DNA from: Promethearchaeota archaeon
Lineage (GTDB): Archaea > Asgardarchaeota > Thorarchaeia > Thorarchaeales > Thorarchaeaceae
Reading direction: 5' to 3'
DNA: 64,000 nt
Assembly: GCA_014728035.1 (NCBI GenBank)
Contig: WJMJ01000059.1
Coordinates: forward strand, 96,001-160,000
Every line of letters begins with the position of its first letter. Position 1 is the first letter of the stretch. The translations under genes and the position numbers were made by a program. Shown here in pieces: positions 5,498 to 5,933 of the stretch. The notes under the pieces are model-generated. The model had not been told where the DNA came from. It made no database searches and saw only the letters and a list, made by a program, of their open reading frames with translations.

Positions 5498-5782
5498 ATG
5501 TCAGAAAGTAAGGTGTTGAAAGGCCGTAGAGGCGTAGTTGTTAGCTATCGAAGAGGTAAACATCTCCAACATACAAATCAGGTCATTTTGAAATTCGATA
5601 ATATTGAATCAAGAAACGAAGCTGCAAGTCTGATAGGTCAGAAAATTAAATGGACTTCATCTGTGGGAAAAGAGACCTTGGGAAAAGTACTCAATGTTCA
5701 CGGAAACAGTGGTGCAGTTCGAGCCAAATTTAGAACCAATCTCCCAGGACAAGCTATTGGAACCCCAGTACACATTATTTAG
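5498..5782 (+). CDS. rpl35ae: 50S ribosomal protein eL33 (L35Ae)
   Basis: VSYRRG..LQH, HGNSGAVRAKFRTNLPGQAIG; start set at ATG 5498 after GAGGA (ORF track starts 5465). Confidence 0.96.
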   Translation: MSESKVLKGRRGVVVSYRRGKHLQHTNQVILKFDNIESRNEAASLIGQKIKWTSSVGKETLGKVLNVHGNSGAVRAKFRTNLPGQAIGTPVHII

Positions 5783-5825
5783 ACATTCATTAACCTTTAT
5801 CACGGGAGATAACTAAAGAGAAATC

Positions 5826-5896
5826 ACTCCGATGATGACTTTTGGCTATCTGAGGGCCCAAGGGTCCTAGGATGTATCATAGTTAGTCTGAGGAGT
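5826..5896 (+). ncRNA. Box C/D 2'-O-methylation guide sRNA
   Basis: Terminal stem ACTCC(5826-30)/GGAGT(5892-96), box C ATGATGA 5832-38, D' CTGA 5850-53, internal hairpin GGGCCC/GGGTCC, D CTGA 5888-91; TTTAT TATA-like box at 5796-5800; intergenic. Confidence 0.85.
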
Positions 5897-5933
5897 ACTT
5901 TATTGAATAAAACGCAACTGGAAGTATAACATA

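Follow-up and report, generated by a model that had tools for sequence, protein, structure and literature searches.

A conserved box C/D guide RNA gene of Thor-group Asgard archaea with a predicted target in helix 69 of 23S rRNA

The 64,000-nt stretch of DNA analyzed here (the window) comes from a Thor-group Asgard archaeon (Promethearchaeota archaeon). Positions 5826-5896 of the plus strand are a genuine and conserved gene for a 71-nt box C/D guide RNA. This identity had been proposed from the sequence of the window, and the boxes, the k-turn spacing, covariation and conservation bear it out. We consider it probable, at roughly 0.8, that the gene would be independently transcribed as a box C/D sRNA whose D guide is aimed at A2038 of the host 23S rRNA and whose D' guide is a weak or remnant guide for C2059.

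The locus has the layout of an archaeal box C/D sRNA

The locus has the features expected of an archaeal C/D sRNA, namely C and D boxes with a 5-bp terminal stem, and internal D' and C' boxes, all on the plus strand. The 5' strand of the terminal stem (ACUCC, 5826-5830) pairs with the 3' strand (GGAGU, 5892-5896), which covaries with it. Box C (AUGAUGA, 5832-5838; U10, G11 and A12 invariant in our alignment of orthologues, A1) is followed by an 11-nt D' guide spacer (CUUUUGGCUAU, 5839-5849) that contains the D' guide word TTTGGCTA (5841-5848) and has G5845 as its +5 nucleotide. Box D' (CUGA, 5850-5853) is invariant at C27 and A30 of A1 and variable at its middle positions, with CCUA, CGAA and CCGA found in relatives. 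An internal hairpin, GGGCC-CAAG-GGUCC (5854-5867), which is supported by covariation and by RNAalifold, leads to box C' (AGGAUGU, 5869-5875; G48 and A49 of A1 invariant). This box departs from the RUGAUGA consensus at two of its seven positions, and relatives have UGAUGA, CGACGA or GGACGA in its place. The 12-nt D guide spacer (AUCAUAGUUAGU, 5876-5887), with the D guide word TCATAGTTA (5877-5885) and U5883 as its +5 nucleotide, ends at box D (CUGA, 5888-5891; C65, G67 and A68 of A1 invariant). Both spacers are within the ~10-12 nt expected of an archaeal box C/D sRNA. Every feature named in the original prediction (the terminal stem, boxes C, D' and D, both guides, an upstream TATA-like box, the hairpin and a degenerate C' box) was found in its place. 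The only open reading frame of at least 20 aa that overlaps the element is a 23-aa minus-strand frame, and a protein-coding reading was rejected.

At the sequence level, the spacing of k-turns is exact for both the C/D and the C'/D' motifs. In each motif the A of D or D' abuts a Watson-Crick stem, and three unpaired nucleotides (G5831-U5833 and U5868-G5870, respectively) precede the GA of C or C'; read from this layout, the bulge of the terminal motif is G5831-A5832-U5833. Despite the degeneracy of box C', its residues G5871, A5872, U5873 and G5874 can in principle still make the G-A, A-G, U-U and G-C contacts with D'. Internal stems between D' and C' are common in eukaryotic snoRNAs. Because the spacing is exactly that of two k-turns, we read the internal hairpin of the Thor RNA as the likely canonical stem of a C'/D' k-turn, replacing the short loop (k-loop) that forms the typical linker of archaeal sRNAs (PMC6009581). 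A hairpin in the D'-C' linker is also seen in published Methanopyrus sRNA sequences, and the feature is therefore not new.

The RNA is conserved and its helices covary

A covariance model of the RNA (R1) finds one copy per genome in 30 of the 31 same-family (Thorarchaeota) genomes searched (25/26 and 5/5). The model also matches the one sister-family genome searched (1/1), 12 of 13 genomes of family f5 and a small number of genomes from other families of the phylum. When positions 5790-5910 of the window were compared by BLAST with 40 relatives, significant matches were obtained in same-family genomes, and nearly all of them spanned query positions 35-106, which is the sRNA alone. Both the BLAST and the covariance-model matches stop at the borders of the predicted sRNA, 5826 and 5896. 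The flanks diverge in the alignment of relatives, and the TATA-like block is the only conserved block of the upstream spacer.

Alignment A1, which contains 18 orthologues, supports both helices. Two-sided changes were observed in 8 of the 12 helix pairs, distributed over the terminal stem (4 of 7 pairs) and the internal hairpin (4 of 5 pairs); column shuffles gave 2.4 +/- 1.3, and none of 500 reached the observed value. As aligned, 88.8% of cells are paired; shifting the 3' partners by 1-3 columns brings this down to no more than 49.5%. RNAalifold independently predicts both helices. The invariant columns of A1 are the GA residues of the k-turns, the C of each D box and the D guide.

A strict regular expression that requires boxes C, D', C' and D and four or more base pairs of terminal stem matches nothing but this locus on the two strands of the 4.33-Mb genome. 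Because this pattern is unique in the genome, and because the matches in relatives are confined to the sRNA, we regard the arrangement as more than chance. At the gathering score, no Rfam family matched anywhere in the window. Below threshold there were seven matches, all of them to C/D-box families, including DdR4 (16.8 bits vs a gathering score of 70), sR11 (16.6 vs 39) and SNORD46 (13 vs 40).

As the host genome contains no second strict candidate, it may either hold very few C/D sRNAs or hold others with unusual boxes. A half-guide scan of this genome for further C/D sRNAs, using a relaxed pattern, returned four matches, all inside apparent coding sequence. GTDB genomes were also scanned with the pattern GNNTCATAGTTANNCTGA; the matches listed are mostly chance bacterial ones, and among those listed nine are archaeal, four of which are sRNAs (two Thor, one Njord and one Heimdall). 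Matches from Bathyarchaeia, Acidilobaceae, Nitrosopumilaceae and Methanosarcinales were rejected, as they have no box C and look coding.

Gene neighborhood, promoter and protein partners

The gene upstream of the sRNA is rpl35ae (5498-5782, plus strand; Pfam PF01247, 77 bits). Homologues downstream of rpl35ae in related genomes, where the original prediction had suggested that they might lie, were sought and found: of 31 same-family loci, 29 have rpl35ae immediately 5' of the sRNA; in G155 it is ~600 nt further off, and at the G008 locus it was not found. The arrangement is the same in the sister family, represented by one genome, with rpl35ae again directly upstream. On its 3' side, the sRNA is followed at every one of the 31 same-family loci by a conserved gene for a membrane protein.

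A TATA-like putative promoter box, CTTTATCA (5795-5802, plus strand), lies 13 nt past the rpl35ae stop codon. Of 32 orthologous loci, 22 have the motif TTTAT 29-32 nt ahead of the 5' strand of the terminal stem; in 16 of these the distance is exactly 30 nt. The position of this box fits that of the sRNA's own promoter, with transcription predicted to start at or just before the terminal stem.

The host encodes the proteins of a box C/D RNP. Genes for Nop5 (PF01798, 228 bits) and fibrillarin (PF01269, 302 bits) are adjacent on contig C9, and L7Ae (PF01248, 98.7 bits) is encoded on contig C25, which is the window's own contig. On contig C9 of the host genome (G000) the Nop5/fibrillarin genes are at 68.3-70.3 kb, and a 5S rRNA gene (73798-73917) is found ~3.5 kb downstream.

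The D guide matches helix 69 of the host 23S rRNA

The host 23S rRNA was taken from contig C103. The host 16S is almost entirely unassembled, and the search for 16S targets used the 16S of G001, a member of the same genus. The lengths of the 23S genes in the family are 3323 nt in the host (L001), 3871 nt in G008 (L245), 3539 nt in G004 (L248) and 3413 nt in G005 (L244), and the 16S match in G001 (L221) spans 2411 nt. Because these genes are much longer than the Rfam archaeal models (2987 positions for 23S and 1478 for 16S), and because their length varies between genera, both the 23S and the 16S genes of the family seem to contain insertions, for instance introns or expansion segments.

The D guide (5877-5887) pairs at 11 of 11 positions with nucleotides 2034-2044 of the host 23S rRNA (ACUAACUAUGA). 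U5883, the fifth nucleotide upstream of box D, is opposite A2038, the second A of UAAC. By its place in the helix 69 loop (U1911 A1912 A1913 C1914 U1915 in E. coli), A2038 is the equivalent of A1913. The proposed pairing of the D guide with helix 69 at the second A of UAAC is thus confirmed against the host rRNA, with a longer match than had been claimed, and the D guide should direct 2'-O-methylation of A2038. Equivalents of A2038 are methylated in eukaryotes, as yeast Am2256 (snR63), human Am3739 (U46) and Dictyostelium Am2522 (PMC2794176, PMC5199042, PMC8817022).

The guide core UCAUAGUUA is identical in 34 of the 35 orthologues listed, and the helix 69 site is present in 22 of 22 family rRNAs. 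The closing pair of helix 69 is C-G in the Thor family (GGGAC UAACUAUGA GUCUC, with ACUAAC), G-C in those other families sampled from the phylum whose stem is the canonical GGGAG, and A-U in G020. In the host, guide residue G5886 pairs with the family-specific C of helix 69 (23S 2029-2049 region). A second possible D target at 23S 2298, which would form 11 bp including two G-U pairs, was rejected, as just 5 of the 22 family rRNAs have it, or 6 when the pattern is loosened.

The D' guide and helix 70/71

The original prediction had staked itself in advance on the presence of the word UAGCCAAA in the host 23S rRNA. This word was sought and is absent; the host reads UAGCCAUA / GUAGCCAUAUG, and the host and its congener G001 share GGUAGCCAUAUGCC at helix 70/71. 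From one end of the D' duplex to the other, the host pairing consists of a G-U pair, six Watson-Crick pairs (UAGCCA), a U-U mismatch, an A-U pair, a second U-U mismatch and a G-C pair. This gives 7 contiguous pairs (6 Watson-Crick and 1 G-U) with 23S 2055-2061. G5845 lies opposite C2059, the equivalent of E. coli C1934, 21 nt downstream of the helix 69 target. The predicted register of G5845 on C1934 therefore holds, while the full complementarity proposed for the D' guide does not, being reduced to these 7 contiguous pairs. To our knowledge, neither yeast nor human methylates its equivalent of C1934.

Pairing of the D' guide at helix 70/71 was tabulated for the 22 family genomes in which both RNAs were available. 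Ten pairs are formed in G014 and G008 (with GUAGCCAAAUG), 8 in seven genomes, 7 in nine genomes, including the host and G001, and 6 in two (G005 and G024); in one genome a 1-nt deletion shifts the D' register, and the guide core of G011 is short by one nucleotide. Helix 70/71 is the only D' site that recurs across genomes, and we believe that it is probably the ancestral D' target, weakened in the host genus by a substitution in 23S. Because this A-to-U change cut the duplex to 7 pairs, D' methylation in the host is doubtful. The D' guides of G005, G013 and G024 have diverged further. Given these diverged guides and the short duplex in the host, the D' half appears to be under weak constraint.

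The helix 70/71 word that is changed in the host genus, GGUAGCCAAAUGCC, is otherwise near-universal; it reads CCAUAU in the host genus and CCAUAC in genus g12. The A-to-U change falls at the equivalent of E. coli A1937, next to the position of yeast Am2280/Am2281. In the host the changed word is at 2755-2765 of L001 (minus strand), corresponding to 23S 2055-2065, and it is also found in G001, G012, G059 and G112. A separate pattern was seen in G003, G004 and G158, whose D' guides are AAUUGGCUAU, AAAUUGGCUAA and GAUUGGCUAU, respectively. In these three genomes a second 23S site near 2531-2534 (CUGGCCAAUUG or AUAGCUAAUUG) pairs over 9-11 bp (8-10 within the guide spacer). This site, which pairs better than helix 70/71, may be a lineage-specific new D' target in this subclade.

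Homologues in other Asgard archaea

Other Asgard homologues (e.g. L107/G152, and L100) have the same D guide, register and overall layout as the Thor sRNA, and differ in D'. The D' guide of family f5 (Heimdall group), ACAAGGCAUU(A/G), forms 10 bp with AAUGCCUUGU of its own 23S rRNA and would be directed at the equivalent of G1940. In family f9 the D' guide GACUAGACAAAU forms 9 bp with UUGUCUAGU of its own 23S, at the G1945 equivalent. Families f17 and f18 and a Njord-group contig have D' guides of the ..CCGGCAAG type, which by comparison of guide sequences are close to that of Ignicoccus sR91, and we read them the same way, as presumptively aimed at the G1945 equivalent. G1945 corresponds to yeast Gm2288, the target of snR75 (PMC5199042, PMC8817022). 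From these guide sequences the D half appears frozen, with the D' half wandering along helix 70/71 between lineages.

The gene neighborhood is not retained throughout the phylum, as three f5 loci were examined and none has rpl35ae as a neighbor. Most Asgard forms have a hairpin between D' and C'; in the Thor sister family (G025) its place is taken by a 4-nt linker.

Comparison with known guide RNAs

Helices 68, 69 and 71 are hotspots of 2'-O-methylation in hyperthermophilic archaea (Dennis et al. 2015, BMC Genomics 16:632, PMC4644070). In the same compilation, the Ignicoccus hospitalis sRNA sR91 is likewise a dual-guide archaeal C/D sRNA whose second guide is also in the helix 70/71 region (PMC4644070, Additional file 1). 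Its D guide, AAUCAGAGUUACG-CUGA, sits in the same +5 register on the UAAC of helix 69 as that of the Thor sRNA. The targets listed for sR91 are 23S A2179 and G2211, and in the main text A2178 of the alignment corresponds to E. coli A1912 (PMC4644070); if the table uses alignment numbering, A2179 would be A1913 and G2211 would be G1945. On that numbering the D' guide of sR91 is directed at G2211 (E. coli G1945), compared with C1934 for the Thor sRNA. The A1913 and G1945 pair of sR91 appears to be kept in the Njord-group and Loki-like Asgard homologues, and not in the Thor family.

A second case is Sac-sR113 of Sulfolobus acidocaldarius, whose D guide is CUCAGAGUUACU-CUGA. Reading the register from the sRNA sequence, its fifth nucleotide is opposite the second A of UAAC, as in the Thor sRNA (PMC4644070). 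Unlike the Thor sRNA, however, Sac-sR113 has a short D'-C' linker of the k-loop type, without an internal hairpin, and its D' guide, CAUAAAAUAG, is unrelated to the Thor D' guide. Direct comparison with the published sRNA sequences shows that the Thor D guide fits the form ...AGUUANN-CUGA of sR91 and Sac-sR113, with U(+5) opposite the second A.

In eukaryotes, the same nucleotide of the helix 69 loop is targeted by snR63 (yeast), U46/SNORD46 (human) and CD4/DdR4 (Dictyostelium), and DdR4 has the guide core UCAUAGUUA in common with the Thor sRNA. The SNORD46 and DdR4 models score far below gathering on the Thor sRNA. The demonstrated likeness consists of the guide and the boxes and may reflect either orthology or convergence on a conserved rRNA word. 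Since Ignicoccus sR91 and Sulfolobus Sac-sR113 carry guides in the same register, the suggestion that the Thor gene is an Asgard counterpart of a eukaryotic snoRNA target was overstated. Judged from guide sequences, the helix 69 target is common to TACK archaea, Asgard archaea and eukaryotes, with no special Asgard-eukaryote link.

Discussion

The observed conservation, covariation, complementarity and protein partners lead us to infer transcription, RNP assembly and methylation as follows. Positions 5826-5896 (plus strand) would be independently transcribed as a ~71-nt sRNA, with one k-turn predicted at the C/D motif and another, closed by a genuine hairpin, at the internal C'/D' motif. L7Ae would be expected to bind the k-turns, followed by Nop5 and fibrillarin. 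The D guide would then base-pair in 23S helix 69, at its loop and 3' strand, and fibrillarin would 2'-O-methylate A2038. Toward the helix 70/71 strand (C2059) the D' guide would be either weak or vestigial, and it may serve mainly as an auxiliary tether that keeps helices 69-71 together during folding.

As in the original prediction, both guides could instead be fully active in the host, methylating A2038 and C2059, with the strong D binding 21 nt away aiding the D' half. Double guides commonly target nearby sites (PMC4644070, PMC6009581), and ~45% of Pyrobaculum sRNAs aim both of their guides at such sites (PMC6009581). The D' core GGCUA is kept in 34 of the 35 orthologues listed, GGUAGCC is invariant in family 23S, and 10 pairs are reached in G014 and G008. 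In-vitro archaeal systems work best with ~10 guide-target pairs, however, and the CCAUAU of the host and G001 creates a U-U mismatch at guide position 8 that leaves 7 contiguous pairs, one of them G-U. The apparent co-variation of guide and target in genus g12 (rRNA CCAUAC, guide UAUGGCUA) was rejected as proof of the D' interaction: the same A at position 8 also occurs in G016, G020, G117 and G167, whose rRNA keeps A, and this makes the co-variation unconvincing. On balance, we think it rather unlikely that the host RNA is a full dual guide. It is very unlikely that the D' guide has instead taken up another target in the host, even though two candidates pair better with it there than helix 70/71 does. 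These are C959 in 23S, where nucleotides 955-963 (GUAGCCAAGCC) form 9 pairs including two G-U, and C11 in the D-arm of tRNA-Arg(UCU), where nucleotides 7-15 (GUAGCCAAA) form 9 pairs including one G-U. More than half of the family rRNAs have CGCAGCC or CGCAGGC at the 23S site, which breaks pairing with the conserved core; the site was rejected as it is not kept across the family. A match of the GUAGCCAA type is present in only 2 of the 47 tRNAs found, and we know of no 2'-O-methylated C11 in archaeal tRNA.

A further alternative is that the element is no methylation guide at all, and is either an L7Ae-binding k-turn in the 3' UTR of rpl35ae or in a downstream leader, acting in cis on mRNA stability or translation, or a chance cluster of motifs. 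Its fixed position between rpl35ae and the membrane-protein gene would agree with a cis-acting role, and L7Ae-binding k-turns have been suggested in archaeal mRNAs (PMC6009581). Such an element would not need a near-invariant 9-nt guide (34/35) that matches helix 69 in the exact +5 register, and the Heimdall-group homologues keep the guide in a different gene context. A chance cluster is ruled out by the covariation and by the uniqueness of the pattern in the genome. We therefore regard an element without guide function as extremely improbable, and retain the reading of an sRNA whose D guide is directed at A2038 and whose D' guide is weak or a remnant.

The distribution of D' targets also bears on the origin of the gene. 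Descent of the Asgard and TACK forms from a common A1913 + G1945 dual guide is possible, the alternative being convergence on conserved rRNA words. A stronger version would place the Thor sRNA in a single ancient lineage that predates the Asgard/TACK split, with an A1913 + G1945 dual guide as its ancestor. That ancestor would survive near-unchanged in Ignicoccus sR91 and in the Njord-group and Loki-like Asgard archaea, and as separate snoRNAs (snR63 and snR75) in eukaryotes, with the Thor and Heimdall groups having retargeted the D' half only. We consider this single-lineage history speculative and, on present comparisons, improbable. If it were true, the stem-closed C'/D' k-turn of the Asgard RNAs would mark an early stage on the way to the layout of eukaryotic snoRNAs.

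Our understanding of how box C/D RNPs work is unchanged by these results. They add a well-supported, previously unannotated guide RNA gene to Thorarchaeota genomes, which on the strict pattern seem to hold very few canonical C/D sRNAs. What is new from this window is the D' mismatch specific to the host, the interpretation of the internal hairpin as part of a k-turn and the table of D' pairing across the family. The gene offers a natural experiment in guide evolution, in which the D half has been frozen and the D' half mobile, and in which a change in the rRNA has left the D' guide mismatched in the host genus. The results further suggest that guide RNAs direct methylation of the helix 69 loop, as known from eukaryotes, across the Asgard and TACK archaea as well, and hence that the target is old and common to these groups rather than having arisen in eukaryotes or in Asgard archaea.
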